IMG/VR virus record: IMGVR_UViG_3300012940_000027
Coordinates: 1-62,126 of that record
DNA from: a virus
Lineage: Duplodnaviria > Caudoviricetes
Length of the DNA stretch: 62,126 bases
Direction: 5' to 3' (one strand)
Each line of letters starts with the position of its first letter. Position 1 is the first letter of the stretch. Below are positions 46,347 through 61,849 of the stretch, piece after piece. Made by a program: the position numbers and the translations under genes. The notes below the pieces were generated by a model that ran no database searches, was not told the DNA's origin, and saw only the letters and a program-made list of their open reading frames with translations.

Positions 46347-46357
46347 CGTGATTGCTC

Positions 46358-47750: not shown

Positions 47751-48077
47751 TCAGTCTCCCTCCTCCTGCCAGCGTTCCTTCATGCGGTGAAGGGCGGCGA
47801 CGACCATTGCCTCGGCCTGCGAATCGCCGATCGGACTCCAGCGCTGGCGGGTGGCCTGGGCCAGGGCCGACTGTGCGGCGCCGACGGCGTGGGCGTCGGG
47901 CACCAGAGCTTCGAAGACGGTGGCGAGCGCGGCGTCGGCGTCCAGCTCGATCTCCTCGATCAGCCCGGACCAACTGCGGTGCCGGCGGGCTTGGTCGAGG
48001 GGCATGTTTCCGATAGAGCCGTTCTTCTGGCGCTCCTCCCAGATGCGGCGGATCACGGCGTCGCGGATGTTCTTCAT
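47751..48077 (-). CDS. Hypothetical protein
   Basis: SAS-like GGAGGGCGACC before ATG. Confidence 0.6.
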   Translation of the reverse strand: MKNIRDAVIRRIWEERQKNGSIGNMPLDQARRHRSWSGLIEEIELDADAALATVFEALVPDAHAVGAAQSALAQATRQRWSPIGDSQAEAMVVAALHRMKERWQEEGD

Positions 48078-48089
48078 GGTCGCCCTCCC

Positions 48090-48464
48090 CTACTGCTCGT
48101 TCATTTGCTGAAAGGCGATGGACTCGGCCTCCGCTTCAGCTTCGTCCTGCGCGGCCCACTCGGCCTCGTGGCGGGCGCGGGTCTCGTAGTGCGCCTCGCC
48201 GACGATCGGGGCGCGGCGGGCGCGGGCCGGTTCCTCGCCGGCCCCAATGGCGCTGCGGATGCTCCACGCCTCATCGAGGCCGAGCTTCCACCGGGTCGGA
48301 GCCTCACCCTCGTCGCCGGGTTCGAACACGTACTCGACGATGATGTCGGCGTCCTGCTCGACGGCGAGGCGGGCGGCGACTTCCTCCTCGCTGCTGCCGC
48401 CATAGGCTGCGCCCTCGCTCTCCAGAATCTGGCCGGTGTACTCGTTGCGGTAATGGCGGATCAT
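48090..48464 (-). CDS. Hypothetical acidic protein
   Basis: SAS 48467-48477; promoter 48519-48547. Confidence 0.7.
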   Translation of the reverse strand: MIRHYRNEYTGQILESEGAAYGGSSEEEVAARLAVEQDADIIVEYVFEPGDEGEAPTRWKLGLDEAWSIRSAIGAGEEPARARRAPIVGEAHYETRARHEAEWAAQDEAEAEAESIAFQQMNEQ

Positions 48465-48518
48465 GGTGGTCGTCTCCTCGTCGCGCCGGCCGGTTTCCTG
48501 TCCGGCCATCGTAGCCAT

Positions 48519-48547
48519 ATTATATCCAAAAAGTTGCCAATGTGCAA
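48519..48547 (-). promoter_or_regulatory. sigma70-type promoter TTGCAC-17-TATAAT with operator
   Basis: Operator 48533-48548. Confidence 0.85.
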
Positions 48548-48549
48548 CT

Positions 48550-49050
48550 CTATTGTGGGCCGATCGGCACGGTCGGGAAGTGGCGGTTGAGGAGGTCGAG
48601 GACCGGGTGAAGCTCGATGTGCGGACGCTGCACGTCGAGGGTGAACGAGTGGGTGTCAACGTACAGGTGGCAGGCCGGCTTCTCTCCGCGGCCGGGGATG
48701 ACAGCGGCGAGGCTGATCGGGGTTTCGAGCGTGATCCGCCAGCGATCGAGGCGGGCGCCGTCGGCCCGCTGGGTGATGAGCGTGCGCAGCTCGTTGCGCA
48801 GCTCCAGGCAGGTGTCCTTGCCGCGCATCGGCCGGCCCTGGCCGGTGGCGATCTCGGTCACCTCGTCGACGGCATCGATCGCCGCGTCGGCCAGGGCAAG
48901 GAATTCCGCCTGCTCCTCATCCCAGAGGGAGTCCCACGATTTCAGCTCGCCGTTGCCGTCCTGATCCAGCTCGACGTACTCGGCTGGGCGCATGTGCTCA
49001 TACAGCCGCTGGGCCACGCCGTACACCTGACGCTCATAGGTGAGATTCAT
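48550..49050 (-). CDS. Hypothetical protein
   Basis: Coupled to upstream stop. Confidence 0.6.
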   Translation of the reverse strand: MNLTYERQVYGVAQRLYEHMRPAEYVELDQDGNGELKSWDSLWDEEQAEFLALADAAIDAVDEVTEIATGQGRPMRGKDTCLELRNELRTLITQRADGARLDRWRITLETPISLAAVIPGRGEKPACHLYVDTHSFTLDVQRPHIELHPVLDLLNRHFPTVPIGPQ

Positions 49051-49454
49051 TCAGCCAGCTCCGTGAGGGCGAGCACGGCGTAGCCGGCCAGGTCGAGCCA
49101 GGTATCGTCGATCGCCTCGTGCTTCGGCTGCTGCTGGTTGAGCATCAGGTTGCGGAGCCGGTGGTACTTGTCGCCAGCGCGGACCAGGATGCCGGTCAGC
49201 CCGAAGTCGCGGATCGGGTCGGTGCCGTAGTCGGCCCGCTTGGAGAGCAGCGTCTCGCGCAGCCGGCCGAGCGCGGCGTCGAGCTTTGCCTCGAACTCCG
49301 GATCGGCGACGATGCGTACCTCCACGCCCTGGGCCTTCAGCGCCTCGATGGCGGCGCGGCTGAGCGGGCGGGACGGATCGAAATGGGCGGCGCCGATGCC
49401 CGCGACGCCGGTGTCGTACAGCTCGTGCTGAATCACTCCCCTACTCCTCTTCAC
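49047..49454 (-). CDS. DUF1599 / nucleotide-modification-associated domain 1 (MazG-like) protein
   Basis: SKRADYG..GILVR..DK..RL..E.I.DT..DLAGYA. Confidence 0.8.
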   Translation of the reverse strand: MKRSRGVIQHELYDTGVAGIGAAHFDPSRPLSRAAIEALKAQGVEVRIVADPEFEAKLDAALGRLRETLLSKRADYGTDPIRDFGLTGILVRAGDKYHRLRNLMLNQQQPKHEAIDDTWLDLAGYAVLALTELAE

Positions 49455-49638
49455 GGCGGACGAACAGCCATTGCGGACTGTCGTAATCCATCACGACGGC
49501 GACGACCGCCGCCTCATTGCTCTCCAGCATCAGCTTGCCGGCTGCCCGACGCAGTGCCTCCGATCGGTTGTCGCCGGTTCCCTCGTGGGCGGCGATCTCG
49601 TTGTTGTCCTTGTCGAGCAGGAAGATGGCGTAGCTCAT
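49441..49638 (-). CDS. Small hypothetical protein
   Basis: GGAGG RBS. Confidence 0.55.
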   Translation of the reverse strand: MSYAIFLLDKDNNEIAAHEGTGDNRSEALRRAAGKLMLESNEAAVVAVVMDYDSPQWLFVRREEE

Positions 49639-50030
49639 CGCGCCGCCTCCGCCACCGGGATGTAGCGCTTGGCGTCGCAGCGCGGACAGACCTTCACCGC
49701 GACCTGGATGCGGGTGCCGTTACTCCGCGGTTCGTTGGCGTAGATCGGCCCGAGGTGCCCCTCGCCGTTGCACTCCGGGCAGGCGACGTGCGTTCCGGCC
49801 GATCGGGCGGAGATCAGGGCGAGCAGCTTGGTCCGATCCTCGCGGCCTTTCGTCACCCGCATAAACATCGCTGCTCCGAAGTCATCCACCGCCGTAGCTA
49901 TTTCCGCGTCCGTGCAGGCGGCAAGCTCGGCGATGGCGGCGCTGGCGAACACCTCGAAGGGCGTGTGCTCGCCGTGCTCGACGTGCGTCTCACTGAGCCG
50001 CTGCGCCAGGCGCTCGATCAGGTCATTCAC
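49635..50030 (-). CDS. Protein with CxxCxGxG zinc motifs
   Basis: CPECNGEG, CPRC. Confidence 0.55.
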   Translation of the reverse strand: MNDLIERLAQRLSETHVEHGEHTPFEVFASAAIAELAACTDAEIATAVDDFGAAMFMRVTKGREDRTKLLALISARSAGTHVACPECNGEGHLGPIYANEPRSNGTRIQVAVKVCPRCDAKRYIPVAEAAR

Positions 50031-50335
50031 TCGCTCACCTCGGCCGGTTGGGAGGAGGCTAACCGGGCCTGCTCGCACAGCTCTGGATAGGAGGCGATGA
50101 ACGCCTGGGCGATCGCCTCGCCGGCGTTGATCGTTGCCACGAATCCGTGGTTCGGGTCGTCCGTGCCGGCGAAGGCGTAGAAGATGCCCGGCGCGGCGAC
50201 ATTGCTGTTAATACGGGTGATCGAGGTGCGCTCGTCGTTGATCTCGGCCCACTCCTGGTGAAAGCCGGGGACGGTCCATTTCCCGTCGTAGCCGTGCATG
50301 TCCACATCGACTTCGACGGTCAGTTTCAGTTTCAT
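50027..50335 (-). CDS. Hypothetical protein
   Basis: SAS variant GGAGCGACCA. Confidence 0.6.
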   Translation of the reverse strand: MKLKLTVEVDVDMHGYDGKWTVPGFHQEWAEINDERTSITRINSNVAAPGIFYAFAGTDDPNHGFVATINAGEAIAQAFIASYPELCEQARLASSQPAEVSE

Positions 50336-50345
50336 TGGTCGCTCC

Positions 50346-50573
50346 TTACGTGGCTGGGGTCAGGGTGGCGTACTCGTCGCAAATGAATTCGTCGCGGTAG
50401 TAGCCAATCTGCGGAATGACCGACGTGACTTTGCCGGTCGAGACGATCAGCGGCGGCGGTTGATACCAGCGCGGCTCCGTGTGGCCGGAAACGCAGACGA
50501 GATTGCTCTCCCCGTCATTGCAGCCGGCAAGCAGCGGAGCCAGAATCAGCGAGACGATTAGGATGCGCTTCAT
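50346..50573 (-). CDS. Small lipoprotein
   Basis: MKRILIVSLILAPLLAGC lipobox. Confidence 0.7.
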   Translation of the reverse strand: MKRILIVSLILAPLLAGCNDGESNLVCVSGHTEPRWYQPPPLIVSTGKVTSVIPQIGYYRDEFICDEYATLTPAT

Positions 50574-50956
50574 ACCGGAGCGAGCTGTTCAGTCATGATC
50601 TTGGACAGCTCGTTGACGATCTCGACGGCGGGCGTGCCGCGGTAGCGGGCCGCATCCCAGGACGTGATGACCTCGCGGATCGCCAGCTTCTCCAGCTCGG
50701 TCAGGTTGCGATCGAGCACGCCCGCAGCGTCCTTGCAGGCGATCTCCCAGCCCGGCATGTAGGCGGCGTAGGCGGTCGGGTTGTTCCGCTGACGGGCGGC
50801 GATGTTGCAGGCGCCGACGATGCAGGCGGCGACGCCGAACTCGACGCGGATATATCCGGTGATCGCCACGCCGAGAGCGAGCACGTCGCCGGCCACCTCC
50901 GGGCCGTAGATGTCGCGCAGTCGCGGGAGCGGTTCAATGGGAATCGGCGAGGTCAT
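50570..50956 (-). CDS. Hypothetical protein
   Basis: SAS variant at ~50960-50970. Confidence 0.6.
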   Translation of the reverse strand: MTSPIPIEPLPRLRDIYGPEVAGDVLALGVAITGYIRVEFGVAACIVGACNIAARQRNNPTAYAAYMPGWEIACKDAAGVLDRNLTELEKLAIREVITSWDAARYRGTPAVEIVNELSKIMTEQLAPV

Positions 50957-51043
50957 CGGTCATCGTCTCCTCGTGGGCTACCGGCCGGGTTAGGTGCTGT
51001 CCGGTAGCCGCGTCATGTCCATATCGTTGCCTTCTGGCAACCG

Positions 51044-51592
51044 CTAGAGATCGTCGGGCCAGGCCGACGGTTCGATGCCGGGGCAGAGCCGCTGGAGCCG
51101 ATCGGTCTCGTCGTTCAGCTCGGCGTTGATCTCTTCCAGCGCGTCGAGGTACATGAGGCCAGCGGCGAACTTGCCGGCCACCGCCCACTCCCCGAAGAAG
51201 GCGGCGCGAACCTTCATCGATTCGATCCAGGACGTATGCAGCGATTCAGCAACAGCCGGCGGGTCGATCTCTTCCAGCGCCTCGGCAGCGGATTCAAAGG
51301 CAGCGGCGTACTCCTCGGCATCGCGGCGGGTGAGCAGATTCAGCGTGCGATCGCTCATTGCGTCGGGATCGGCGAAGAGAAACTTTGCCTCGCTGTCGTT
51401 GATCGCGGTGACGAACTCGTAGGCGTAGTCGGCGAAGTCGGCGCAGGCCGCGCTCCAGGTGGCGGTTGGGGTCGGGGTGCTCCGCGGCGTCGGGGTCGGC
51501 GTCCGGGCAATGGCCGGGATCGCCAGCGTGGCAATGAGGCAGAGCACGCCCAGGACGGTGAGCACGCGGCGAATGTGACGGGTAGCGGACAT
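51044..51592 (-). CDS. Secreted/membrane-anchored helical protein with PT-rich linker
   Basis: Signal peptide, TPTPTP linker; SAS variant. Confidence 0.65.
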   Translation of the reverse strand: MSATRHIRRVLTVLGVLCLIATLAIPAIARTPTPTPRSTPTPTATWSAACADFADYAYEFVTAINDSEAKFLFADPDAMSDRTLNLLTRRDAEEYAAAFESAAEALEEIDPPAVAESLHTSWIESMKVRAAFFGEWAVAGKFAAGLMYLDALEEINAELNDETDRLQRLCPGIEPSAWPDDL

Positions 51593-51639
51593 TGGGGTCG
51601 TCTCCTTGGGTGGTCGGGCGGGACAGTCCCGCCCGGCGG

Positions 51640-52125
51640 TTACTCGTAGCTCGGCCGGGATTCTGCCATGAGGGTGACCGTTCTCGGCACCTGCGTCTTC
51701 GTGGTGAAGCCGAGACCCAGGCGGCGCAACGAGGCGTGCTCCTTGTGGCCGATGACCACATGGTCGAGCACCGATATGTCGAGGATGTCGCCGGCCTTCA
51801 CCAGTTCCTCGGTGACCGACACGTCACCGCTGGACGGCGTGGCATCACCGGAGGGGTGATTGTGGGCGACGATAATCGCCGTCGCGTTGAGCGCCATCGC
51901 CTCGCGGAACACCTCGGCGACGCGGATCGGAATCTGGCTAGCCGTTCCCTGATAGAGCATGCGGGTGCTCAACAGGCGGTTCTTGCCGTCGAGGGTGGCG
52001 ACGTGCAGCTCCTCGTGGTCGAGGCCGTCGAGGTGGGCGAACAGCGCCGCGATGTCCTGGGGGCTGTTGATCTTTGCCCGGCTGCGCGGTGCGATCTGGC
52101 GCGGATTCAGGGTGGTCGTCTCCAT
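51640..52125 (-). CDS. RadC-like JAB domain protein
   Basis: E..LD.KNRL, HNHPSGD..PS..D, LDH.VIG. Confidence 0.9.
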   Translation of the reverse strand: METTTLNPRQIAPRSRAKINSPQDIAALFAHLDGLDHEELHVATLDGKNRLLSTRMLYQGTASQIPIRVAEVFREAMALNATAIIVAHNHPSGDATPSSGDVSVTEELVKAGDILDISVLDHVVIGHKEHASLRRLGLGFTTKTQVPRTVTLMAESRPSYE

Positions 52126-52131
52126 ATCCGG

Positions 52132-52623
52132 TTAGCTCCTTGGCCCGGCGGCCAGCGTCGCCTTGATGGCGTGCAGGCGGGCGATCATCGCGTCGATGAA
52201 CGCGGCGTCGATGACGAGGGTGTCGTAATCGAGCTCGTCCCGCTCCTCGTCGGTCATGTCGTCGTGGACGTGTTCGGACGCCTGCTCGAAGAAGAGCTGC
52301 TGGCGGCCGTTCTCGTGCAGCCGGGTGAAGACCTCGATCGGTCCGTAGGAGGTCGCCGTCGTGATGGTGTGCTCGGGAAATGCGGCGTCGCCGAATCGCG
52401 CAGTGATCGACAGGTCGGCATTGCGGGTGGCAACGTCAGCCAGGATCGCCTCGGCCAGGTCGATGGCGAACTCTTCGTTCACCGTGACGAAGTGAACCTC
52501 CAACGAGTCACGGCGCTTGGCCTGGGAGAGCGAGATCGATTTGGTGGTGGGATCGCGGTGCATCGCCACCGGCGGAAGGCCCTGCCCGGCGTCGATGAGC
52601 CGGACATGCTGGGGTTCGGTCAC
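52132..52623 (-). CDS. Hypothetical protein
   Basis: SAS 52624-52634 before GTG. Confidence 0.65.
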   Translation of the reverse strand: MTEPQHVRLIDAGQGLPPVAMHRDPTTKSISLSQAKRRDSLEVHFVTVNEEFAIDLAEAILADVATRNADLSITARFGDAAFPEHTITTATSYGPIEVFTRLHENGRQQLFFEQASEHVHDDMTDEERDELDYDTLVIDAAFIDAMIARLHAIKATLAAGPRS

Positions 52624-52865
52624 TGGTCGTCTCCTTGCTGGGCGTCTGCTTCGAGGGCCAGCTCCTCGACGTAATGCTTGTAGGCCGCATCGACGGCGCT
52701 GCCGAAATTGAGTTGGTGGTGCGTGCAGTAGTGCAGAAGGTCGGAAAGCAAATCGATCAGGATGGTCTCGTTGTCTTCGTCGGGGGCGCCGACCGCCTCG
52801 CGGTAAGTGGTCATCGCCCGCTCGGCGAACGAGGCGCGAAGCGAATTGGTGAGGTTGGTCGGCAT
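52620..52865 (-). CDS. Small MazG-like helical protein
   Basis: IDLLSDLLH.....NF...DAA..HY.EE; SAS variant. Confidence 0.6.
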   Translation of the reverse strand: MPTNLTNSLRASFAERAMTTYREAVGAPDEDNETILIDLLSDLLHYCTHHQLNFGSAVDAAYKHYVEELALEADAQQGDDQ

Positions 52866-52925
52866 CCGGTCGTCTCCTTTTCGGCACCGGAGATGCCTCC
52901 CCGGTGCCGAATCGTAGCTCTCTGG

Positions 52926-53165
52926 CTACTCCATGTAGAGCGAATCGAGGCGGACGAGCAGGGTCTCGATGTCCTGCATCACGCCTTGGGCGAGCGAGGG
53001 GGCGCTGTACTCCTCCTCTGCGTACAGCTCCATCAGGGAGGCGACTTCCACCTGGATGTCGCCGGCCTCCTCGGCGTCTGCGAACCGGTGCGGGTCCACG
53101 CCCAGGAGGGTGACCAAGCGGTCGAATTCTGCCTGATGCATCGGAACAAAATTCTTCTGGGTCAT
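52926..53165 (-). CDS. Small acidic hypothetical protein
   Basis: SAS variant 53168-53178; promoter 53222-53250. Confidence 0.65.
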   Translation of the reverse strand: MTQKNFVPMHQAEFDRLVTLLGVDPHRFADAEEAGDIQVEVASLMELYAEEEYSAPSLAQGVMQDIETLLVRLDSLYME

Positions 53166-53221
53166 TGTGGTCGCCTCCGGTTCGCGCTCGGGCCGGGCCA
53201 GTTCCCGTCCATTGTAGCCCT

Positions 53222-53250
53222 ATTATACACAAATCGTTGCCATCATGCAA
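53222..53250 (-). promoter_or_regulatory. sigma70-type promoter TTGCAT-17-TATAAT with operator
   Basis: Operator 53236-53251. Confidence 0.85.
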
Positions 53251-53254
53251 CTCT

Positions 53255-53872
53255 TTAGGCGATCAATCGCTCGATCGTCTCGATGGCGCGGATCGCGTCA
53301 TCCAGCTCCGATTCACGCACGGCCAGCAGCTCGATCTCCTCATTGAGCCGGGCCAGCTCGGCGTCGAGGCGCTCGCGCTCCTGGGCGACTTCGGCCCGTT
53401 CGGCGTCCACTTTTTCACGGGCCAGGGCGAGCCGGTCGTGCTCATCCGTTATGCGTGCGAGCTTGACCTCACGGACGCCGGGCTGCCCTGTCAGCTCAGT
53501 GCTGGCGGCCGGATCATCAGCCGCCCACGGGTATTCGACGATTCCCGGAACATCTGCCACCGTAACGTCCTCCTCATCGTGGGCAGGGATCACCACCGGA
53601 TCGTCCGGCGGATCAGCCACCGGCGTCGGGTGAATCGCGGCCGAGACCGGAAAGCGGGCGTGCTTCTGGGCGGCCATGCGGTTCACATCCTCCATGCAGA
53701 CGAGGGTGCGGCCGCCGCGATTCTTGTGGCGAACTTCGTTGCGCTTCACGTAGTTGTAGACCGTTTGCGGGCTGACCAGCGCAAAGTGGGCGGCATTCGC
53801 CACCGGGAGCCAGTCGGCGCTCGGGTCCGCCTCGCCATTCCGCTTGCGCGTGTTGCCAACGGCGCTCGGCAT
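53255..53872 (-). CDS. HTH_17-like DNA-binding protein with C-terminal coiled coil
   Basis: WLPVANAAHFALVSPQTVYNYV; heptad tail; SAS. Confidence 0.7.
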   Translation of the reverse strand: MPSAVGNTRKRNGEADPSADWLPVANAAHFALVSPQTVYNYVKRNEVRHKNRGGRTLVCMEDVNRMAAQKHARFPVSAAIHPTPVADPPDDPVVIPAHDEEDVTVADVPGIVEYPWAADDPAASTELTGQPGVREVKLARITDEHDRLALAREKVDAERAEVAQERERLDAELARLNEEIELLAVRESELDDAIRAIETIERLIA

Positions 53873-53930
53873 CTGGTCGTCTCCTTGGCGTGGGCGCCGG
53901 GGATCAGCCCGGCGCCGGCGGATCAGCGGG

Positions 53931-54134
53931 CTACTCGCCGTCTTCGAGGTAGGTGTAGCGGCGGGCCTGGCCGAGCAACTGGTCGAAGTCGATGTCGTAG
54001 CCGTCGGCCAGGCGGATCAGATCGGCCAGGATGTCGGTCATCGGCTTCTTCACGCCCTCGCCATCGATCTGGTCAATCAGGTCGGCGGTCAGCGGGCTGG
54101 CCCATCCCATCTTGATCGTCGTGGCATCGGTCAT
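53931..54134 (-). CDS. Small protein, paralog of 52620-52865
   Basis: TDILADLIRLADGYDIDFDQLL.QARR..YLED; SAS 54137-54147. Confidence 0.6.
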   Translation of the reverse strand: MTDATTIKMGWASPLTADLIDQIDGEGVKKPMTDILADLIRLADGYDIDFDQLLGQARRYTYLEDGE

Positions 54135-54190
54135 TGTGGTCGTCTCCTCTGCGCTTCGGACCGGAGCAGCTCTCCGATCACTGTAGCCTC

Positions 54191-54219
54191 AGTATACACA
54201 AATAGTTGCCTATGTGCAA
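54191..54219 (-). promoter_or_regulatory. sigma70-type promoter TTGCAC-17-TATACT with operator
   Basis: Operator 54205-54220. Confidence 0.85.
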
Positions 54220-54221
54220 CC

Positions 54222-54710
54222 CTACGACGCAGCGACGAGATGGGTGTGCGGCGTGTGCCCCTTGCTCCAGGCCACCTTCAGGCGACCGCGGGCGATCTCT
54301 TCCAGCAGGGCGTTGATGCTGCCCCGGCCGGCAGCCTGGCCGGACGGAATGCGGATGCCGAGGTTCTCGGCCAGCCCGACGAGCGTCTCGTGGTCCCGCG
54401 ATTCAAGGCGAACCTGGATGCGGTCTCGCGGGTCGGCGCGGCGACCACGGCGCACGCTCGGGCCGAGCACCTTGCTCACGTACTGGTGCGAGGTGCCGAA
54501 GTGCTCCGCGATCTCGATGTTGGTCATCCCCTGCTCGCGCATGGCGACCATCTTGGCGAAGCGACCATCCTTGTCGTCGGTTTCTGGCAGCCACGAGTAC
54601 ACGGTCACTCGCGGGATGCCGAGTTCATTGGCAATCTGCGGGATGCTGAGTCCTTTCTTGCGCAAGGCCAGCGCCTTGGTGCGCAGTTCTTTGAGGTCAG
54701 GGTTCGTCAA
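54222..54710 (-). CDS. Tandem-HTH + ribbon-helix-helix-like DNA-binding protein
   Basis: GLSIPQIANELGIPRVTVYSWL; GMTNIEIAEHFGTSHQYVSKVL; RIQVRL...SINALLEEIA; AAGGAG RBS, TTG. Confidence 0.7.
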   Translation of the reverse strand: MTNPDLKELRTKALALRKKGLSIPQIANELGIPRVTVYSWLPETDDKDGRFAKMVAMREQGMTNIEIAEHFGTSHQYVSKVLGPSVRRGRRADPRDRIQVRLESRDHETLVGLAENLGIRIPSGQAAGRGSINALLEEIARGRLKVAWSKGHTPHTHLVAAS

Positions 54711-54723
54711 CGTTCGTGCTCCT

Positions 54724-54990
54724 TTACGTGGTCGTCTCGGCGGACCGCTCGGCCCGCCACGGTTCCGGTTGATGCGCCAGGGTCTCGTCGGTGTCGAGGC
54801 GGGCGAGCAGCTCGTCGATCCAGGCTCGCATGCGTCCGAGGTTGTGCCGCCGGGCATCGATCGGGAGGGCGACATCGGTCGCCTCCCCCAGCGCGGCATC
54901 CTGCGCCGCCCGCAGCCGCTTGACTGTTTGCGGGCGTTCGGCGGCGAAGGCATCGACATCGAAGAGGGGCGCCGGGTTGTAGCGCGGCAT
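54724..54990 (-). CDS. Hypothetical protein
   Basis: SAS 54992-55002. Confidence 0.6.
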   Translation of the reverse strand: MPRYNPAPLFDVDAFAAERPQTVKRLRAAQDAALGEATDVALPIDARRHNLGRMRAWIDELLARLDTDETLAHQPEPWRAERSAETTT

Positions 54991-55005
54991 CTGGTCGTCT
55001 CCTCA

Positions 55006-55464
55006 CTACACCCGATTAGTAGCCTTCTGGCTACTTTTAGTATACCGATTTCGTCGCTTTTCCGCTACCAGCTCATAGCCCGGCACGATCTCGCCGTCGA
55101 GCACGGCGATGATGTTCTTGTAGTCCTCGGGCCGCCAGAGGTAGACGCGGTTGCCGGCGTGGAGGAGCGTGGTCAGCCAGACGCGCTGCGCGGGCTTCGG
55201 ATATTCACCGGGCATTTTCAGCTCGGCGTAGATGGTGCCCTTCTCTGGGTGCGCCAGCACCAGGTCGGGAAAGCCGGCCGGGGAGCGACGGCTGTCGTGC
55301 GTGTGATAGGCCAGCCACTCACGCGCCTGCGCCTCACGCATGACGATGCCGGTGAAATCGGCTTCGTTGCGCGGGTAGATCGCCCAGCGCAGTTCCTCGG
55401 CGCTCATCTCGTACTGGTCAGCCGGAATGCCGGCCAATGCCCGCCGGCGAGGATACCGTGCCAT
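55006..55464 (-). CDS. VRR-NUC domain nuclease (Holliday junction resolvase-like)
   Basis: E..F, HTHDSRRS..GFPDLVL..ELK..Q..W..WRP.D. Confidence 0.85.
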   Translation of the reverse strand: MARYPRRRALAGIPADQYEMSAEELRWAIYPRNEADFTGIVMREAQAREWLAYHTHDSRRSPAGFPDLVLAHPEKGTIYAELKMPGEYPKPAQRVWLTTLLHAGNRVYLWRPEDYKNIIAVLDGEIVPGYELVAEKRRNRYTKSSQKATNRV

Positions 55465-55466
55465 CG

Positions 55467-57272
55467 TTACAGCTCCGCCTCGTAGTCGTCCGGATCGTAG
55501 AGGGCGGTGACATCGGCGTAGCGATGGGTCACCGCGTCGTACTTGAACAGGGCCACGCCCAGCTCGCCGTGGTCGGGGAAGCGCATCTTCTGGATGTGGA
55601 CCTGCACCGGCTCGTCCTTGTTCTTCTTGTCGCGCCAGATCGAGAGGATGATGTCGGCCTTCTCGTACCAGTGGCGGCTGTCGGAAATGTCGTAGGGGGT
55701 CACCACCGGCATGCGGCGGGTGCCCTCGCGATCGACCTCCATCGCCATCTTCTTGGGGTGGGCGGCGATGACCACCAGGACACCGAACTCGCGTCCGAAG
55801 CGACGGAAGCGGGAGAGGCAGAGATCGATCCAGTCGGTCAGGCTGAGGTTGCCCCGCTCGGCCTGGGAGACCTCCGTCCACGGGTCGATGATGAGCAGCT
55901 TGATGCCGTTGCGGTAGACCAGCGTTTGCGCTCGCTCGAGGATGGCGTCGATGGTCGGCTCCGGCGGCATGATGAAGCTGATCTTCTTGCTGATCGTGGC
56001 GACGGCCTGGCGCACCTCGTCGCGGGTCGCCGGGGTGTAGCCGGTCGAGCCGGTGAACTTCTGATTCATCGGCTTGCCGAGCAGGGTCTCCACCAGGTCG
56101 CGAACGTGGCGCTCAGGCGGGTGGTACTCCGGCGAGAAGACGCCGCAGTTCCAGTCGTGATTGACGGCCAGGTCGAGCATGACGCTGTTCATGAAGACCG
56201 ATTTACCGGAGCTGGGGACGCCGGTGAGGATGAGGAGCTGGCTCGGCGAGAACCGGCATTTCTCGGCGAACGCCGGCCAGGTCGTGATGCGAGCGCCTTC
56301 CTCGGTGTCGTGCTCGTACTTCCAGAGGTATTCGAGGTAGTCGGCCGGCTCGTTGATGCCATCGACCGGATACGGCTCGGCCATGTCGATCGCGGCCAGG
56401 ATGCCGGCGGCGCCGCCCTGCCAGCCGTCGGAGCAAAGCGTGTCGTTGGCGTCCTTGCAGCCCTCGGGCCAGAAAACGCGCCAGCACTTCCCGCGGCCGA
56501 TGCGTCGGGCGAGCTCGTCCATCAGGCGGCGGCCCGGTTCGTCCATGTCGCCGCAGAGCACCACCCTGCGGGCGTTGTTGAGCGCCCTCTCACCGCTTGG
56601 CAGGTACGAGAAGTCGGCCTTCTCGATGTCGGTGTTCAGGGAGGGAGCGCCATTCGGCGGGGAGATGACGTTGGTGATCCCAGCTTCGGCCAGGGCCAGC
56701 ACGTCCATCTCGCCCTCGACGATGTAGATCGTCTCGGCTCCCTGCACGCGGTCGAGGTTCCAGAAGATCAGCTCCGCGCCGCTCTCCAGCCAGAACTTCT
56801 TTTGCGGACCACGGTGCTTGACGTTAACCAGCTCGCCGTCGCGGAGGTACGGGAAACAGATGCTTCGCTCGTCCTCGACCACGCCGAACGCCTGGTAGAC
56901 CTCCGGGCTGATGCCGCGATCCTGCATGAACTTCTGGAGCCGGGTCTGGGTCGGTTTCGGCTCGATAGGCTTGGGCTTGTCGTAGACCTTTTTCTTTTCG
57001 CGCTCCAGCGGCGGGTTGTAGAGCGCCCGGTTGAAGCCGCCACGCGGTTCGAGGCCGCGCTCCTTGGCGAAACCAGGCTCAGGTCCGGTCCAGCCGCAGT
57101 GAAAGCAGTTCCAGGTGTTCTTGTCGAGATTGACGCTGAGACAGCGTTCCCGGCTGTTGCGCCGGGTGTGGCTGCACTTGGGGCAGAGCGTCTTCACGTC
57201 GCCGGTGGTGCGCCCGTGGGGAATCTCGATCCCCAGCTCGATCCAGTTGATGGGTGGGAAGTCTCCCGTCAT
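55467..57272 (-). CDS. Bifunctional primase-helicase (T7 gp4/Twinkle-like)
   Basis: CPKC..CFHCG zinc finger; IVEGEMD and DMD TOPRIM; GVPSSGKS Walker A; IIDPW; AHP. Confidence 0.9.
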   Translation of the reverse strand: MTGDFPPINWIELGIEIPHGRTTGDVKTLCPKCSHTRRNSRERCLSVNLDKNTWNCFHCGWTGPEPGFAKERGLEPRGGFNRALYNPPLEREKKKVYDKPKPIEPKPTQTRLQKFMQDRGISPEVYQAFGVVEDERSICFPYLRDGELVNVKHRGPQKKFWLESGAELIFWNLDRVQGAETIYIVEGEMDVLALAEAGITNVISPPNGAPSLNTDIEKADFSYLPSGERALNNARRVVLCGDMDEPGRRLMDELARRIGRGKCWRVFWPEGCKDANDTLCSDGWQGGAAGILAAIDMAEPYPVDGINEPADYLEYLWKYEHDTEEGARITTWPAFAEKCRFSPSQLLILTGVPSSGKSVFMNSVMLDLAVNHDWNCGVFSPEYHPPERHVRDLVETLLGKPMNQKFTGSTGYTPATRDEVRQAVATISKKISFIMPPEPTIDAILERAQTLVYRNGIKLLIIDPWTEVSQAERGNLSLTDWIDLCLSRFRRFGREFGVLVVIAAHPKKMAMEVDREGTRRMPVVTPYDISDSRHWYEKADIILSIWRDKKNKDEPVQVHIQKMRFPDHGELGVALFKYDAVTHRYADVTALYDPDDYEAEL

Positions 57273-57311
57273 AAGCTCCTCCTCTGCTATCGTCTCGTAG
57301 CTACTTGGCAA

Positions 57312-58376
57312 CTACGCGAACGAATCGGGGTGTTCCCACATTCGACAGTGATTGGCGTAGGCCCGCTTGAAGCCAGCGAGCTGCTCCGGTGTCATCACGT
57401 CTTTGAGCTTGGCGCCGGCCTCGATCGCCGCCACCTGCTCGACGGAGAGGTGCCACGAGGTGCCGACGTGGTAGGTCAGCGGGTTGAAGCCGTACTTCAG
57501 GCCGCGCCAGAGCGGCTTGCCGTTCCAGGTCTCCGGCTCCGGCTCCTGCGTCGGCAGATCGATGTCGAGCTGATCCTCCCAGCCGCCGGCGTTGAGCCAG
57601 CTCGCCGGGTACGGGATGAACTGGCCGCCCTGCTTCAGCCATTCGGGCGACTGCTTCTGGCGCTCGACCGCGGCGATCATGCGCTCGGTCATCGCGTCGT
57701 CCGGCTTGATCCTGTCCCAGGCCCGCCGCGCCGCTGCCGGATGGCGCTTCTTGGGGTAGTGCGCGTACCAGCGGGCAAAGCGTTCTTCGAGGGTGCTGCG
57801 CTTGCCCGGAGCGGTTGACGCCACACCGTCGTCACTGGCGCTCTCGCTCCCCCTTTGGGGGGTATGGGGGGTGTCTTGGTCTATATCCGTCTTGGAGAGA
57901 GACGTATTGTTATTGCATGGTCTCTCTGACCAATCGGTCTGGTCTGTGTGACCACTCGGATTGGTCTCTGTGACCACTCCAGAGGTCTGTGTGACCACTT
58001 CCCCACCCTCGGCCGGATCGCTTTTCGTCACGTCGAGGACGGTGTAAACGCTGCTGACCTTCAGGCCGTCGGCGTCGGTGCGGCTGGTGACAGAGAGCAG
58101 CGGAGCGAGGTCGTGGCGGTCGAGCACGCCATCCTCGCCGGTCAGCGTGCGCAGGGACCGCTGGACGGTGCTCACGCTGGTCCCGGTTTTCTCGGCGATC
58201 GTCTTCAGGCGGATCGTGCATTCCCGTGTCTCGAACGAGACCCGAGAGAGGATGCACATGTAGACGGCAATCGGATTCGGACCGATGACCGGCGCGTAGT
58301 GAAACATCACCTCGTTGTCGACGATGAAGAATCCACGACGCCGCCGGCCGTCCTGGAATCCGGTGCTCATCGCCAC
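57312..58376 (-). CDS. Replication initiator with HTH and DnaD-like C-domain
   Basis: FFIVDN..TIAEKTGTSVSTVQRSL; F..W..YPKK..A..AW; FIPYPASWLN..WED. Confidence 0.85.
   Translation of the reverse strand: MAMSTGFQDGRRRRGFFIVDNEVMFHYAPVIGPNPIAVYMCILSRVSFETRECTIRLKTIAEKTGTSVSTVQRSLRTLTGEDGVLDRHDLAPLLSVTSRTDADGLKVSSVYTVLDVTKSDPAEGGEVVTQTSGVVTETNPSGHTDQTDWSERPCNNNTSLSKTDIDQDTPHTPQRGSESASDDGVASTAPGKRSTLEERFARWYAHYPKKRHPAAARRAWDRIKPDDAMTERMIAAVERQKQSPEWLKQGGQFIPYPASWLNAGGWEDQLDIDLPTQEPEPETWNGKPLWRGLKYGFNPLTYHVGTSWHLSVEQVAAIEAGAKLKDVMTPEQLAGFKRAYANHCRMWEHPDSFA
57919..57999. repeat. Four iterons (GGTCTSTSTGACCA), putative replication origin
   Basis: Starts 57919, 57941, 57963, 57984 (22/22/21-bp spacing) inside initiator gene beside AT-rich patch. 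Confidence 0.8.
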
Positions 58377-58416
58377 GCCCCGAGGGTCATTTTCTGCGGA
58401 GATGCTGAGGAAAGTG

Positions 58417-58495
58417 TGGTATAATCCACCCTAGAAACTCCTTTCAGTTCACGAACGCCGCCCCAGGTCCGACACCCGGCGGCGTTCGTGTTTCT
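58417..58495 (+). ncRNA. Putative ~65-nt antisense RNA to replication-initiator leader (with promoter)
   Basis: Extended -10 TG-G-TATAAT 58417-58425; 13-bp hairpin 58450-58490 + TTTCT. Confidence 0.5.
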
Positions 58496-58575
58496 GGCCG
58501 TCCAAGTATAACCTACCGCGCTACGAATAGTTGCTAGTTGGCAACCATTCGGGAAACGTAGAGTAGCCATATGGG

Positions 58576-58604
58576 TTGCATAGGGTATCCCCATGTGCTA
58601 CCTT
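58576..58604 (+). promoter_or_regulatory. Antisense promoter TTGCAT-17-TACCTT
   Basis: Consensus-like hexamers, 17-bp spacer, extended TG. Confidence 0.55.
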
Positions 58605-58779
58605 GGCTGAGGCAGAGAGACTCGATACCTGCCTCCCATCTACGCACTCCGGGCACCCAGCCCGGCGACTCATGCCGAGGCCCCTCCTGACGGCTGTTGA
58701 GTCGAAACCACTGGTTCGGGGCGGCATGCAGACCCCGCCCCGAACCGCCGTCACCCGCCACTGCGCAATCGGCGGACGC

Positions 58780-58808
58780 TTGACGGAGAATTGCCTTAGT
58801 GCTACCCT
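58780..58808 (+). promoter_or_regulatory. Antisense promoter TTGACG-17-TACCCT
   Basis: Consensus-like hexamers, 17-bp spacer, extended TG; one-mismatch operators at 58790-58805 and 58813-58828. Confidence 0.6.
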
Positions 58809-58813
58809 AATGG

Positions 58814-58890
58814 TGGCCCTAGGGCTACCACCGGATTCTTGGTCGTCTCCGACGTGGGCGAAGCGCCACTGCACCCGCAGTGGCGTTTTT
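58814..58890 (+). ncRNA. Putative anti-SAS small RNA (~75 nt)
   Basis: Promoter upstream, UUCUUGGUCGUCUCC seed (58836-58850), intrinsic terminator. Confidence 0.55.
58861..58890 (+). terminator. Intrinsic terminator (+ strand)
   Basis: AAGCGCCACTGC-ACCC-GCAGTGGCGTTTTT. Confidence 0.8.
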
Positions 58891-58901
58891 GCATGCCCGC
58901 G

Positions 58902-59723
58902 CTAGCTCCGGGCCGGAGCCTGGCCCATGATCTGCTGCTTCTGCTTCGTGACCGCGGCGTCGATCTCGGGGTGGAGGCGCAGTCCGTTTTCTTGCAGCGC
59001 CGTGATGACGTTTTCCAGCGCCGCTGCCGTCCGGGCGTTGCTGATGTTGCGCAGCCAGGCGAAGAGAGTCTGGTCCTGGCCGGACGATGGCGGTGGCGGT
59101 GCCGAGGGCGCCGGCGCGGCGTTGGACGTGTCGCCGCCGAGGCGCTTGATGAGGTCGGACGCCTGCGCCTTGCTGAGCTGGGCGAGCACCGCGCCGTAGA
59201 TCGACTTCGCGTGGGCGTTGGCCTCATCCGGGTCCACACCCTGCTCCTCGTACATCTTGCCGAGCTTGAAGAGCTGCTTGTCGGTCGCCGGCTCCGCGGA
59301 GTAGCGTCCATTAGCCGTATTCGTAGCTCTCTGGCTACCATAGGAACCGGAGGCCCGGCCGGGCGTGGCGACCGGCGCATCGACCACGCGGTCGGTGCCC
59401 TCGTCGAAGTCGGTGGCGAACTGCGTGCCGAAGCCCAGCGCGGCCAGTGCCCGGCCCAGCGCCTTGGTCTCGGCCTTTTCCACGAAATCGCGGAAGTCGC
59501 TGTACTGCTCCTGTCCCCAGCCGGTGGCCGAGCCGCCGCCGGGGATGGTCACCTTCGCCCGGAACACCGCCGCGTCGCCGGTGAAGCTGGTCATCTCCGT
59601 GGCGATCTCGGCGTCAGGGTGCTCGGTGCGCAGCCAGAGCAGCCGCCATTTCACTTCGAGGTATTCGGCTCCTGAGACACGAGTCAGGAACCGGGATGGT
59701 TCAAATACGCTTGCGTTCTCCAC
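58902..59723 (-). CDS. Rad52/Sak-like single-strand annealing protein
   Basis: YLEVKWRL.W.R, ATGWG, EKAETKALGRALAALGFG; AT.KQ..L C-terminal motif; SAS 59724-59734. Confidence 0.8.
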   Translation of the reverse strand: MENASVFEPSRFLTRVSGAEYLEVKWRLLWLRTEHPDAEIATEMTSFTGDAAVFRAKVTIPGGGSATGWGQEQYSDFRDFVEKAETKALGRALAALGFGTQFATDFDEGTDRVVDAPVATPGRASGSYGSQRATNTANGRYSAEPATDKQLFKLGKMYEEQGVDPDEANAHAKSIYGAVLAQLSKAQASDLIKRLGGDTSNAAPAPSAPPPPSSGQDQTLFAWLRNISNARTAAALENVITALQENGLRLHPEIDAAVTKQKQQIMGQAPARS

Positions 59724-59883
59724 TGGTCGTCTCCCGGTAAAGTATCCAGCCCCAGGCAGGGGGGGCCTCGGCTGGATCGATCACGAGGTGCTTGTCAACG
59801 ATGCGAAAGCCCTCCTTGGTGATGCGCTGAACCTCGGCGTCGAATGCCGATTCCTCATCGCCGGAAAGCTCGTGGAAGCTCAT
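59701..59883 (-). CDS. Small hypothetical protein, first gene of leftward operon
   Basis: GGAGACC before ATG; promoter 59975-60003. Confidence 0.45.
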   Translation of the reverse strand: MSFHELSGDEESAFDAEVQRITKEGFRIVDKHLVIDPAEAPPAWGWILYRETTSGERKRI

Positions 59884-59974: not shown

Positions 59975-60003
59975 ATCCTACCAAAATCGTTGCCAATGTG
60001 CAA
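59975..60003 (-). promoter_or_regulatory. Lytic-side promoter TTGCAC-17-TAGGAT with operator
   Basis: Operator 59989-60004 and near-match 60011-60026, divergent from repressor. Confidence 0.7.
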
Positions 60004-60237
60004 CAATGAGGTAGTCCGTGCGCAACCGTTCCGCCACCTTCGTATATGCTGAAGGCAACGAACGGTCCTACTGTTAGTGTGTTGTGGTGGTATATGTACG
60101 CCCCGCCCTGGCCGTGTTAGGATAGTGGTGTGGCTACTACCAAAAAGTATCCACCTGGCTATCATTAGCGCCAGTTTCTCACACCCAGTAAGCGGTCTGC
60201 AATCAGCTTTCGGGTGGGGACTTCAGGAGGATTCTAC

Positions 60238-60687
60238 ATGCGACGAACCATGGCCCGAACGGGTGATCCGTTTCAGGACTGGCTGATCTCCGAGCTGGAA
60301 GCTCGGGACTGGACGATGGCCAAGCTCGCCCGTGAGCTGGATGTCTTCAAAGGCACAGTGGGCCGGTGGCTCTCTCCGATTGACGGCGAAGATTTCCGGC
60401 GTCCATCGATCGAGTCGTTTCGCCGTCTCGGTGAAATCTTCGGCGTCGATCCCCTCTCCATCATGGAACTCGCCGGCATTGAGGGACTGGATGTTACCAA
60501 GGACCTCTCGCCGATCAAGCGCGACATCATGTCGGCGGTGATCGCGATTCCGGACGACCTGCTGGTGTCGGTCTACCCGCAGCTCCGGGCGCTCATGGAC
60601 ACCCACGTTCAGGAGACCATTCGCAAGAAGACGGCGAAGCCAGCAGCCGGCCGGACGAAGAAGACGGCCGCTGACGCCGATGCGTAA
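60238..60687 (+). CDS. XRE-family HTH immunity repressor
   Basis: WTMAKLARELDV.KGTVGRWL..RPSIES..RLG..FGV; AGGAGG RBS; upstream of integrase. Confidence 0.85.
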   Translation: MRRTMARTGDPFQDWLISELEARDWTMAKLARELDVFKGTVGRWLSPIDGEDFRRPSIESFRRLGEIFGVDPLSIMELAGIEGLDVTKDLSPIKRDIMSAVIAIPDDLLVSVYPQLRALMDTHVQETIRKKTAKPAAGRTKKTAADADA

Positions 60688-61849
60688 GACCTCCGCTGCC
60701 GCGGCGAAGAAGCGCCCGGACAACACCGGGTCGGTGTCGATGCGGCAGCGGGCAGACGGTCGCTGGGAAGCCCGGCTCACTATTCCAGGGGGCAAGCGCC
60801 GGTCGTTCTACGGCGCGACCTGGGAGGAGGCAGAGGCGAAGATGATCGCGGCCCGCTCCGAGCTGGAGAAGGGCCGCCTGGCCGAGCCAGGGCGAGCCAC
60901 GGTGCGTACCCTGGGCGAGGAGTTCTTTCGCCTGAATCCGCTCAGCCTGCGTGAAACGACGGTCCGCTCGCGCAAGTCCTACTTCAAGTGCTGGATCGAA
61001 CCGCTGATCGGCGACGTTCCGCTGCGCAAGCTCACGGCGCAGCACGTTCACACCGTCCGCACCGCCCAGCGCGACGCCGGCAAGAAGGCCGGGACGATCA
61101 ACGGCACGCTCGCCACGATGTCAAACATCTTTGCCTACGGCGTCTCGGCCAACCTGCTCCAGCAGAATCCGGCTGCCGGTCTGGATTGGGACCCAGCGCC
61201 CGATCCTCGCGACCTGCCGATTGAGAATGCCGAACAGATCGAGCTGCTGCTCACCGCCTGCCGGGCGTCGAATTACCGCACCGCGCTCATGCTCGGCATC
61301 GGGCTGGGGCTGCGCTCGGGCGAGGCCCGTGGCCTGCGCTGGCGCGACGTGGACTTCGACAACCGTATCGTTCGCATTCGCAACGGCGTGGCCTTCCGTG
61401 ACGGCGAATCATACTTCCAGCCGCTCAAAACACGTTCGTCGCGCCGTGACCTTCCCATGCCTGACTTCATCTTCGACGAGCTGAAGCTCGCCCGAAAGGT
61501 GCAGGCGGAGAAGCGGCTCCGCCTCGGCCCGCTGTGGAAGGACCACGATCTCGTCTGCTCGAACTTCGGCACGATCCTCTCCCACGCCACCCTGGCGAAG
61601 GAGATGTTGCGCATCCGGAACAAGACCGGCATCGACGAGCTGGTCTTCCATCACCTCCGGCACCTGTGCGCCACGATGCTGATGATCAACAACGTGCCAC
61701 CGCGCATCGCCCAGGCGATCCTCGGGCACGCCACATCCCAGACCACCCTGCGCATCTACCAGCACGTCAACAGCGCCTCGCTGCGTGAAGCGGCCGAGGT
61801 CCTGAACGCCGTCTTTGCCCGCCCCGACTTCGAGGCGACCAGCGGCTGA
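60680..61849 (+). CDS. int: Tyrosine integrase
   Basis: N-terminal arm-binding domain; GLRSGE (R), LKT (K), HHLRH, LGH, IYQH (Y). Confidence 0.95.
   Translation: MRKTSAAAAKKRPDNTGSVSMRQRADGRWEARLTIPGGKRRSFYGATWEEAEAKMIAARSELEKGRLAEPGRATVRTLGEEFFRLNPLSLRETTVRSRKSYFKCWIEPLIGDVPLRKLTAQHVHTVRTAQRDAGKKAGTINGTLATMSNIFAYGVSANLLQQNPAAGLDWDPAPDPRDLPIENAEQIELLLTACRASNYRTALMLGIGLGLRSGEARGLRWRDVDFDNRIVRIRNGVAFRDGESYFQPLKTRSSRRDLPMPDFIFDELKLARKVQAEKRLRLGPLWKDHDLVCSNFGTILSHATLAKEMLRIRNKTGIDELVFHHLRHLCATMLMINNVPPRIAQAILGHATSQTTLRIYQHVNSASLREAAEVLNAVFARPDFEATSG

Follow-up and report, generated by a model that had tools for sequence, protein, structure and literature searches.

A candidate small-RNA gene with a seed complementary to the extended ribosome-binding sites of about 20 genes in a temperate phage

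Genome, host and relatives of the phage

The window, i.e., the whole stretch of DNA analysed here, is an IMG/VR record of 62,126 bp with a completeness rating of 91% and a GC content of about 65%. The minus strand carries nearly all genes of the phage. Terminase, portal, major head, and tail proteins are identified by PHROG matches, as are the products of the following genes.

60542-61846, plus strand: integrase
60214-60687, plus strand: repressor-like HTH protein
57312-58376, minus strand: replication initiator (phrog_270)
55470-57311, minus strand: primase/helicase

The phage is temperate and siphovirus-like. The best protein matches, which are 25-40% identical, belong to phages of Pseudomonas, Thermus, Roseobacter, Paracoccus, Caulobacter, and Achromobacter. 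Because these are phages of, e.g., Pseudomonas, Roseobacter, and Caulobacter, the host is probably a high-GC proteobacterium and not a mycobacterium. The phage is not a mycobacteriophage, its nearest protein matches being to phages of proteobacteria, and mycobacteriophage cluster K, which an earlier note on this DNA had brought up, serves as an analogy only.

Regarding closer relatives, a nucleotide search with the non-coding gap described below and 20 kb of the window gave no match to GenBank phages. Matches to the primase/helicase in viral contigs have at most 38% identity and come only from low-GC contigs that lack the start-associated motif, and the 273-aa protein encoded next to the gap is without relatives in viral contigs. 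The capsid-protein search for prophage relatives found none in sets of 5 and 401 genomes. Among the contigs of four DNA runs, the same phage appears in a second sample (X3) as a 151-nt contig over 58725-58875 with one change, which is evidence of presence only, not of divergence. The tRNA and Rfam searches of the window returned nothing significant.

A non-coding gap upstream of the replication initiator gene

A gap of 525 bp (58377-58901), from which the codon-position GC signal is absent, immediately precedes the gene for the replication initiator. The 5 ORFs tested in it have no match among PHROGs and a single Pfam match far under the cut-off (14.3 vs 30.5 bits). The gap is also unusually structured, with z-scores of −8.5 for the plus strand and −5.4 for the minus strand.

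Promoter-like sites were ranked over 372,546 configurations of −35, spacer, and −10 on both strands, using approximate generic sigma-70 frequencies. According to this scoring, the gap holds 3 of the 4 best plus-strand promoter-like sites of the 62-kb window.

58397-58425, plus strand: promoter-like site with TGgTATAAT, rank 13th over both strands
58576-58604, plus strand: promoter-like site, rank 21st over both strands
58780-58808, plus strand: promoter-like site of the cassette described below, rank 9th overall and top plus-strand site of the window

The site 58780-58808 is outranked by minus-strand sites alone, namely promoters of the phage itself and one site in the repressor gene (60518-60491). 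In dinucleotide shuffles of the gap, a score of at least 13.6, which is the level of the cassette promoter, arose in 82 cases out of 2000, and a third-best score of at least 11.1 in 2 out of 2000; sigma-70 scores of minus-strand sites in the gap do not exceed 5.7. Also present are a second plus-strand hairpin terminator and a decayed, plus-oriented copy of the phage's promoter module (58528-58575), which ranks 13th by the phage promoter matrix and has a dead −10 (AAACGT).

The start-associated motif and its gene set

The motif GGAGACGACCA, composed of a Shine-Dalgarno sequence and a 7-nt spacer, has 18 exact copies in the window, all of them on the minus strand. When up to one mismatch is allowed, 31 matches are found vs 2.26 ± 1.46 in shuffles. 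In sixteen of the exact copies, an ORF of 60 aa or more begins 0-3 nt further on, with ATG or GTG in 15 cases and an in-frame CTG in 1. As for the other two, the copy at 24154 lies within the tail-chaperone ORF, and the copy at 58840-58850 is an orphan, with no start codon after the motif, inside the 525-bp gap; it is indeed, as had been claimed before, the sole intergenic exact copy without a gene. Together with one-mismatch minus-strand copies, 4 of 10 of which stand at gene starts, the motif is carried by about 20 genes, in agreement with the earlier count. The gene-linked copies, listed below, are confined to 3571-9850 and 42938-59734, outside the structural block.

59724-59734, minus strand: motif at the start of the 273-aa gene (GTG), a candidate target
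54992-55002, minus strand: motif at the start of an 88-aa gene
54137-54147, minus strand: motif at the start of a 67-aa gene
53874-53884, minus strand: motif at the start of a 205-aa gene with a weak MerR-like match
53168-53178, minus strand: one-mismatch motif at the start of a 79-aa gene
52867-52877, minus strand: one-mismatch motif at the start of an 81-aa gene
52624-52634, minus strand: motif at the start of a 163-aa gene (GTG)
52113-52123, minus strand: motif of a RadC-like 156-aa gene (phrog_10276, E 1.9e-35), in-frame CTG 2 nt on
51595-51605, minus strand: one-mismatch motif at the start of a 182-aa gene
48467-48477, minus strand: motif at the start of a 124-aa gene
42938-42948, minus strand: motif at the start of a 163-aa gene
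9840-9850, minus strand: motif at the start of a 100-aa gene
9516-9526, minus strand: one-mismatch motif at the start of a 105-aa gene
8678-8688, minus strand: motif at the start of a 66-aa gene
7645-7655, minus strand: motif at the start of a 60-aa gene
7410-7420, minus strand: motif at the start of an 88-aa gene
7088-7098, minus strand: motif at the start of a 97-aa gene
5674-5684, minus strand: motif at the start of a 90-aa gene
4052-4062, minus strand: motif at the start of a 133-aa gene, with a 14-nt match to the seed
3571-3581, minus strand: motif at the start of a 232-aa gene (GTG)

On the coding strand, several of these starts show a recurrent junction that consists of a stop codon, a GC-rich hairpin, 3-13 nt, the motif, and a start codon; the order of hairpin and then motif is found at 53884, 52877, 7420, 7098, 48477, and 51605.

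Regarding bacteria, at least one copy of the 11-mer is present in 91 of 151 alphaproteobacterial genomes (a set that includes one unpublished genome, G050), with a maximum of 12 per genome, compared with 18 in the 62 kb of the window. The 17-mer formed by the motif and ATGACC gives at least 120 single matches in bacterial genomes. Among the matches listed in bacterial genomes, the 10-mer core has at most 2 copies per locus, and no phage relative is found among them.

Promoter and operator modules of the phage

Nine strong minus-strand promoters have the form GGTTGCAnnnTGGCAAC-N8-TATAAT/TATACT, one of them being the early promoter that adjoins the repressor gene. The palindrome of the promoter module belongs to a single family, GTWGC-N6-GCWAC, with 28 perfect sites and a 6-nt spacer in every one. 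In several modules, a second palindrome (GTAGCC-N4-GGCTAC) occurs 4-12 nt after the −10, and the motif and start codon come about 16 nt further on. The GTAGC-N6-GCTAC palindrome follows five modules, namely the strong ones at 4136, 5752, and 9918, plus those at 52914 and 55019. The promoter-module pattern has 0 matches in viral contigs; 2 matches in metagenome contigs were rejected as chance (the contigs have 31-44% GC).

The cassette at 58779-58890 and its predicted RNA

The orphan motif is part of a plus-strand unit with the elements given below, in which L144 denotes the second copy described in the next section.

58779-58785, plus strand: −35 element CTTGACG (TTGACG at 58780-58785), in a block, CGCTTGAC, identical in L144
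58801-58808, plus strand: −10 region GCTACCCT, with TACCCT preceded by TGC; GCTAC conserved in L144
58811-58830, plus strand: near-palindrome TGGTGGCCCTAGGGCTACCA of 20 bp, predicted 5' hairpin, one mismatch from GTWGC-N6-GCWAC
58836-58850, plus strand: anti-RBS seed TTCTTGGTCGTCTCC, complement of the start-associated 11-mer plus AAGAA
58861-58890, plus strand: intrinsic terminator with a GC-rich stem of 10-12 bp (arms 58861-58872 and 58877-58888), loop ACCC, and T5

The coordinates and sequences of promoter, seed, hairpin, and terminator given in the earlier note are all confirmed, as are the exact complementarity of the seed to the motif and the 14-nt identity between the seed and 4049-4062. 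The unit contains no ORF and is bracketed by a promoter-like site and a terminator, again as had been proposed; neither of the two has a better-scoring counterpart on the plus strand of the window. A 17-nt spacer separates TTGACG from TACCCT (58803-58808). With a dG of −18.9, the terminator (58863-58886 and its T-run) outranks every other canonical terminator of the window, whichever the strand, and the coding strand has none better than −13.4. Read on the minus strand, the terminator hairpin is without a T-run; among the junction hairpins, a T-run on the opposite strand is unique to that of the orphan. The terminator ends at 58890, which leaves 12 nt before the stop codon of the 273-aa gene (58902-58904). 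A simple rule-based scan, in which 4/6 matches per hexamer were required and the stem was allowed to extend into the T-run, called neither promoter nor terminator; dedicated scans called both.

The promoter-like site has a poor −10, TACCCT (in L144 TACAAG, which lacks the final T), and as a whole it scores below 0 against the matrix built from the phage's own nine promoters. The cassette −10 coincides with the operator-family half-site GCTACC, and both TACCYT "−10" hexamers fall within GTGCTACC repeats. A one-mismatch operator palindrome of 16 bp (GTGGC-N6-GCTAC, 58813-58828) follows 4 nt after the −10 and covers the expected start point; the real promoter modules of the phage are arranged in this way too, with 4-12 nt separating −10 and palindrome. 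Several one-mismatch operator palindromes had been reported over the promoter. There is only this one, just past the −10, and the other nearby match has 3 mismatches.

For the predicted RNA of 77-79 nt, folding (−39.5 kcal/mol, z −3.4) gives a 5' hairpin, a weak hairpin whose loop contains most of the seed, and the terminator. The predicted unpaired probability is 0.42-1.0 across UUCUUGGUC and near zero over the final CC of the seed, which is the part that would pair with the GG of the Shine-Dalgarno sequence. The seed accessibility on which the earlier idea depends thus holds in prediction for the 5' half, which is mostly unpaired, and fails for the final CC, which is predicted to be paired. 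A duplex scan of the whole predicted RNA vs the minus strand is non-discriminating, with long GC-rich duplexes found everywhere.

The reading we favour tentatively, as the likeliest of those considered, is that 58779-58890 is an autonomous small-RNA gene with a seed complementary to the extended RBS of about 20 phage genes, acting by RBS occlusion. Driven by the sigma-70-type promoter (CTTGAC, 17 nt, CTACCC/TACCCT), transcription of an RNA about 77 nt long would begin near 58814 and run on the plus strand, against nearly all phage genes. The RNA would comprise a 5' terminal hairpin (58811-58830), a mostly open UUCUUGGUCGUCUCC, and a Rho-independent terminator (58861-58890), the open part being complementary to GGAGACGACCA ahead of about 20 early/accessory genes. 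If stable, such an RNA would pair in vivo with the motif sites and block 30S binding in the manner of anti-Shine-Dalgarno small RNAs, with an effect on translation. Because the palindrome at the start point belongs to the operator family, synthesis of the RNA may be under the same regulator as the phage promoters.

A second copy in an unrelated phage

Other users of the motif were found by scanning viral contigs for the motif followed by ATGACC. In viral contigs G001-G005, the 11-mer serves as an RBS behind their own promoters: G001 (41 kb, 61% GC) uses it for three small genes, G002 (a fragment) has 3 exact and 5 near copies, and in G003, with a completeness rating of 100%, 3 exact and 3 near copies are present, every one at an ATG. 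The cassette, however, is absent from G003 although the same 11-mer RBS is in use there. The earlier note had suggested that the RNA would explain why the RBS is conserved beyond GGAG. Since the 11-mer RBS is common to unrelated contigs, including the complete G003 without a cassette, the RNA does not explain the conservation of the motif. A phage of this kind, with the motif retained and the cassette missing, is what the earlier note itself had named as a refutation. The occurrence of the same 11-nt RBS in several unrelated soil phages points to a host-side cause of the sequence, separate from the RNA.

A second copy of the cassette, L144, is located in G001, which has no nucleotide similarity to the window and a single weak protein match to it (terminase, 26% identity). 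The two units are built as follows.

Window unit: CGCTTGAC, 16 nt, GCTAC, 15 nt, AGGGCTAC, 9 nt, CTTGGTCGTCTCC, hairpin, TTTTT
L144 unit: CGCTTGAC, 17 nt, GCTAC, 17 nt, AGGGCAAC, 9 nt, CTTGGTCGTCTCC, 10 nt, hairpin, TTTTTGTTTG

The 13-mer CTTGGTCGTCTCC is common to both seeds; leaving aside the promoter elements, no other long block is conserved. Upstream of the 13-mer, 62-65 nt align with a score of 35 vs 16.3 ± 5.5 for random segments, which attained 35 in 35/20,000 and 65/20,000 trials. L144 has the hairpin GCCCT-CCC-AGGGC in place of the 5' hairpin of the window, with AGGGCWAC 9 nt before the seed in both. The terminator stems have the same form and different sequences, and MAFFT left them unaligned. 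The predicted RNA of L144 has the same three-part fold as that of the window (z −3.8), and no ORF is conserved between the units on either strand. According to its rank in G001, the promoter-like site of L144 is 19th; the terminator is second best on its strand (best on other strand). Against the S. meliloti sigma-70 consensus as given in PMC2873474 (CTTGAC-N17-CTATAT), both −35 elements match in full and the −10 elements at 3-4 of 6 positions.

L144 is flanked by an AP2/HNH-like gene and a tail-fibre-like gene in a late-gene region. Both run in the direction of the cassette and differ from the flanking genes of the window, so the unit is independent of its context and travels alone. Beyond L144, pattern scans of the viral collection gave no further cassette copies (the other matches are coding sequence or ordinary gene starts), and there are none in 401 alphaproteobacterial genomes. 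The comparison suggested earlier, i.e., a search elsewhere for an orphan motif between promoter and terminator, has thus yielded one case, with the same seed and geometry. Judged from sequence, this copy in an unrelated phage makes the anti-RBS small RNA reading plausible.

Alternative readings

A different account of the locus, which we regard as somewhat unlikely, is that of a relic: a coding-strand junction, made up of the stop codon that ends the 273-aa gene, a hairpin, a spacer, and the RBS, whose downstream gene was deleted or replaced. No plus-strand RNA would then be made, and the promoter-like site would be a by-product of operator half-sites in a gap rich in decayed promoter modules. 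This account has to be considered because stop, hairpin, and motif form the normal gene junction of the phage. The order of hairpin, spacer, and motif recurs at no fewer than six real gene starts, and the orphan, with its hairpin, 12 nt, and motif, fits this pattern except for the start codon and has the orientation of the other 17 exact copies. The decayed module copy at 58528-58575 lies in the same gap, and both TACCYT hexamers belong to the GTGCTACC repeats. In L144, the orphan adjoins the AP2/HNH-like gene, which is of a typically mobile kind and could have displaced a gene. A relic, however, leaves unexplained the T5 on the opposite strand that only the orphan has among junction hairpins, the loss of the start codon in both copies, and the blockwise, equally spaced conservation downstream of the motif in an unrelated phage, where the conserved blocks coincide with the −35, −10, and hairpin of the opposite strand.

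The unit may also produce a real plus-strand small RNA with another job, i.e., a local, oop-like one, control of replication or its origin jointly with the other plus-strand units of the gap, or action on host mRNAs, the RBS match being secondary; we consider this unlikely. The position of the gap directly upstream of the replication initiator, its two additional plus-strand promoter-like sites and second terminator, and its overall structure (the z-scores given above) are in line with such a role. Host targets are conceivable, since the 11-mer is present in bacterial genomes (91 of the 151 alphaproteobacterial ones), and the L144 cassette lies in a late-gene region, away from replication genes. 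On the other hand, besides the promoter elements the 13-nt RBS complement is the only long block kept in both copies, and both the window phage and G001 use the motif for their own genes. Moreover, 12 nt separate the terminator from the neighbouring gene, which means that the RNA would not overlap coding sequence in cis-antisense.

Finally, the locus could function as DNA or through a peptide, as a cluster of protein-binding sites (operator or origin) or as the RBS of a minus-strand micro-ORF, which seems very unlikely. The palindrome at 58813-58828 is in the family with 28 perfect fixed-spacer sites, which suggests a dimeric DNA-binding protein. L144, however, lacks the GTWGC-N6-GCWAC palindrome on either strand, and therefore the blocks shared by the two copies are not that operator. 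Regarding a peptide, the sense reading from the last base of the motif gives K-x-P-x-V-A-L-G in the same frame in both copies, but in neither are the 7 nt that follow the motif found to contain ATG, GTG, TTG, or CTG. In the window the frame ends after 12 codons, whereas that of L144 continues as the antisense shadow of a real gene, and the share of third-position differences (4/6) is not significant (p ~0.3, binomial). The micro-ORF was rejected: KNPVVALGPPLG-stop in the window and KPPEVALGGRV... in L144 differ in length, and a start codon is found in neither.

If the anti-RBS small RNA is real, it provides a concrete hypothesis for the post-transcriptional co-regulation of about 20 scattered phage genes by one RNA.

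Comparison with known systems

The start-associated sequence (SAS) of cluster K phages is described as an asymmetric motif with a Shine-Dalgarno core near the starts of a subset of non-structural genes, in one orientation, with a conserved promoter and an inverted repeat ahead of roughly half the sites (PMC3203893, PMC11373665). In the Adephagia study, the extended SAS (ESAS) consists of a SigA-like promoter and an inverted repeat (PMC11373665). Compared with these descriptions, the window motif is likewise asymmetric, has a Shine-Dalgarno core, and, in 16 of 18 exact copies, stands 0-3 nt before a start; all exact copies share a single orientation, the gene-linked copies are restricted to non-structural genes, and a subset of copies is preceded by a promoter and an inverted repeat, as in the ESAS. 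In contrast, the motif is GGAGACGACCA in the window and GGGATAGGAGCCC in cluster K, the spacing to the start is 0-3 nt vs 3-9, and the orphan of the window is oriented like the gene-linked copies, whereas cluster K1 has an opposite-orientation SAS. The phage of the window is thus an analogue, not a member, of the cluster K SAS system. As far as can be judged from its DNA, it shows that SAS-like systems, i.e., a promoter-operator module together with an extended RBS, exist beyond actinobacteriophages.

The SAS has been known since 2011, when Pope et al. left its ligand as "RNA or protein" (PMC3203893), and papers of 2024-2025 still call its role unknown (PMC11373665, PMC12699233). The literature searched contains no paper that combines "start-associated sequence" with "small RNA" and describes no antisense RNA for cluster K, and the word "antisense" is absent from PMC12699233. 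In Anaya (cluster K1), a single opposite-orientation SAS lies in a non-coding gap, and the transcribed strand would show the anti-SAS in a hairpin loop. A much broader proposal, which we put forward as a speculation that is quite unlikely to hold, would be that phages with an extended start-associated RBS carry a dedicated anti-site RNA that switches the whole set off or on in translation, with the window and L144 as first examples and the opposite-orientation SAS of cluster K1 as the same device. If such an RNA were general, it would answer what reads the SAS, a question since 2011.

Among bacterial RNAs, the closest in concept are the alpha-r14 or "cuckoo" small RNAs (e.g., NfeR1, RF02344), described as trans-acting, alphaproteobacterial, and anti-Shine-Dalgarno, with two to four hairpins that each carry a CCUCCUCCC loop motif, and a terminator (PMC4615179, PMC10746234). 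L144 matches Rfam RF02344 (ar14) weakly through CCUCCC loops (24.1 bits, E 0.007-0.013), far under the gathering score of 58.8, and the window cassette, which is without CCUCCUCCC, has no Rfam match at E up to 5. Unlike the cuckoo RNAs as described, the window unit is phage-borne, and its seed spans the Shine-Dalgarno sequence and a specific spacer (11-13 nt), putatively for the phage's own genes.

As for phage regulators, the c4 RNA of P1/P7 and the CI RNA of P4 pair with short repeats in the phage's own early transcripts and shut a gene set, the pairing of c4 overlapping a ribosome site. Each of them matures by processing of a longer transcript and has two or three targets, all within a single operon, whereas the window unit has its own promoter-like site, about 20 separate candidate sites, and no sequence relation to them. 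Lambda oop, which is about 77 nt long, has a promoter of its own and a strong terminator and is transcribed against the early operon just upstream of the replication initiator gene; it covers the 3' end of cII and works as a cis-antisense RNA. The predicted RNA of the window resembles it in its length of about 77 nt, in its promoter-like site and terminator, and in its position upstream of a replication initiator gene; unlike oop, the unit leaves 12 nt to the stop codon of its neighbouring gene and has no coding overlap. In concept, the proposed RNA is close both to the anti-Shine-Dalgarno small RNAs, as these are described in PMC4615179 and PMC10746234, and to the phage antisense regulators P1 c4, P4 CI, and lambda oop.

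Candidate countertranscript at the replication initiator leader

Another candidate plus-strand small RNA lies at 58367-58500 and would run antisense to the replication initiator gene's leader. Its predicted fold has an energy of −31.9 kcal/mol (z −5.5). The region contains these elements:

58417-58425, plus strand: extended −10 promoter TGgTATAAT, rank 13 in the window
58429, minus strand: GTG start of a 20-codon leader ORF with ribosome site AAAGGAG
58450-58490, plus strand: 13-bp hairpin followed by UUUCUGG, downstream of CUCCUUUC

The promoter is followed by CUCCUUUC, which is single-stranded in the predicted fold and complementary to AAAGGAG, the ribosome site of the leader ORF that precedes the initiator. 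The TGA stop of this ORF and the initiator ATG (58370) overlap as ATGA. By its layout, the unit resembles plasmid-type control of a leader-coupled rep gene by a countertranscript.

Promoter remnants and palindromes

The 525-bp non-coding gap upstream of the initiator gene has, as a whole, an unusual amount of predicted structure (z −8.5 for the plus strand and −5.4 for the minus strand). Within 58528-58605 it also holds a decayed, plus-oriented copy of the phage promoter module. The palindrome of this copy, GTTGCTAGTTGGCAAC, is perfect and its −10, AAACGT, is dead; AGAGTAGCCATATGG, which comes next, is similar to the module at 5752. Adjoining this copy is a third plus-strand promoter-like site:

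58576-58604, plus strand: TTGCAT-17-TACCTT

The 16-bp palindromes GTWGC-N6-GCWAC form a single family with 28 sites in the window and a spacer of invariably 6 nt. Example sites are:

4079-4094
4121-4136
13854-13869
59989-60004

In nine strong promoters such a palindrome overlaps the −35 element, and members of the family also recur just 3′ of several −10 elements. The family is probably the operator for one dimeric regulator of many scattered promoters.

The ribosome site in other viral contigs

Unrelated viral contigs share the 11-nt ribosome site GGAGACGACCA, either unchanged or with one mismatch, immediately 5′ of ATG, namely L149 (G002), L132/L195-L197 (G003), L145 (G004), and L155 (G005). 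The genes that carry it there are small and promoter-proximal, with every site placed behind the contig's own repeated promoter module. In the 9.7 kb of G002, for example, the site occurs 8 times, always after a near-identical repeat ending in TCAACA or TCAACAGA.

As for the RadC-like gene of the window (phrog_10276), at 52110-52123 an apparent CTG start lies 2 nt past the 11-mer motif, and ATG, GTG, or TTG was not found near this ribosome site in the frame of the gene. Separately, an 8.2-kb IMG/VR contig with a distant primase relative (L008) contains a 9-mer family of 10-14 repeats (e.g., GCGGCGTCC and CCCTAGCGG), perhaps an array of iterons or other repeats.

Comparison with cluster K mycobacteriophages

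Mycobacterium phage Anaya (JF704106, L219; cluster K1) has a single start-associated sequence (SAS) in the opposite orientation, at 34871-34883, where 385 bp of non-coding DNA separate genes 96 and 97. The transcribed strand carries the SAS complement, which is predicted to occupy a hairpin loop of 10 nt, with a fold z of only −1.3. This site may be an analogue of the candidate small-RNA cassette at 58779-58890. The arrangement of GTWGC-N6-GCWAC palindromes and promoters in the window, in turn, is reminiscent of the cluster K extended SAS.
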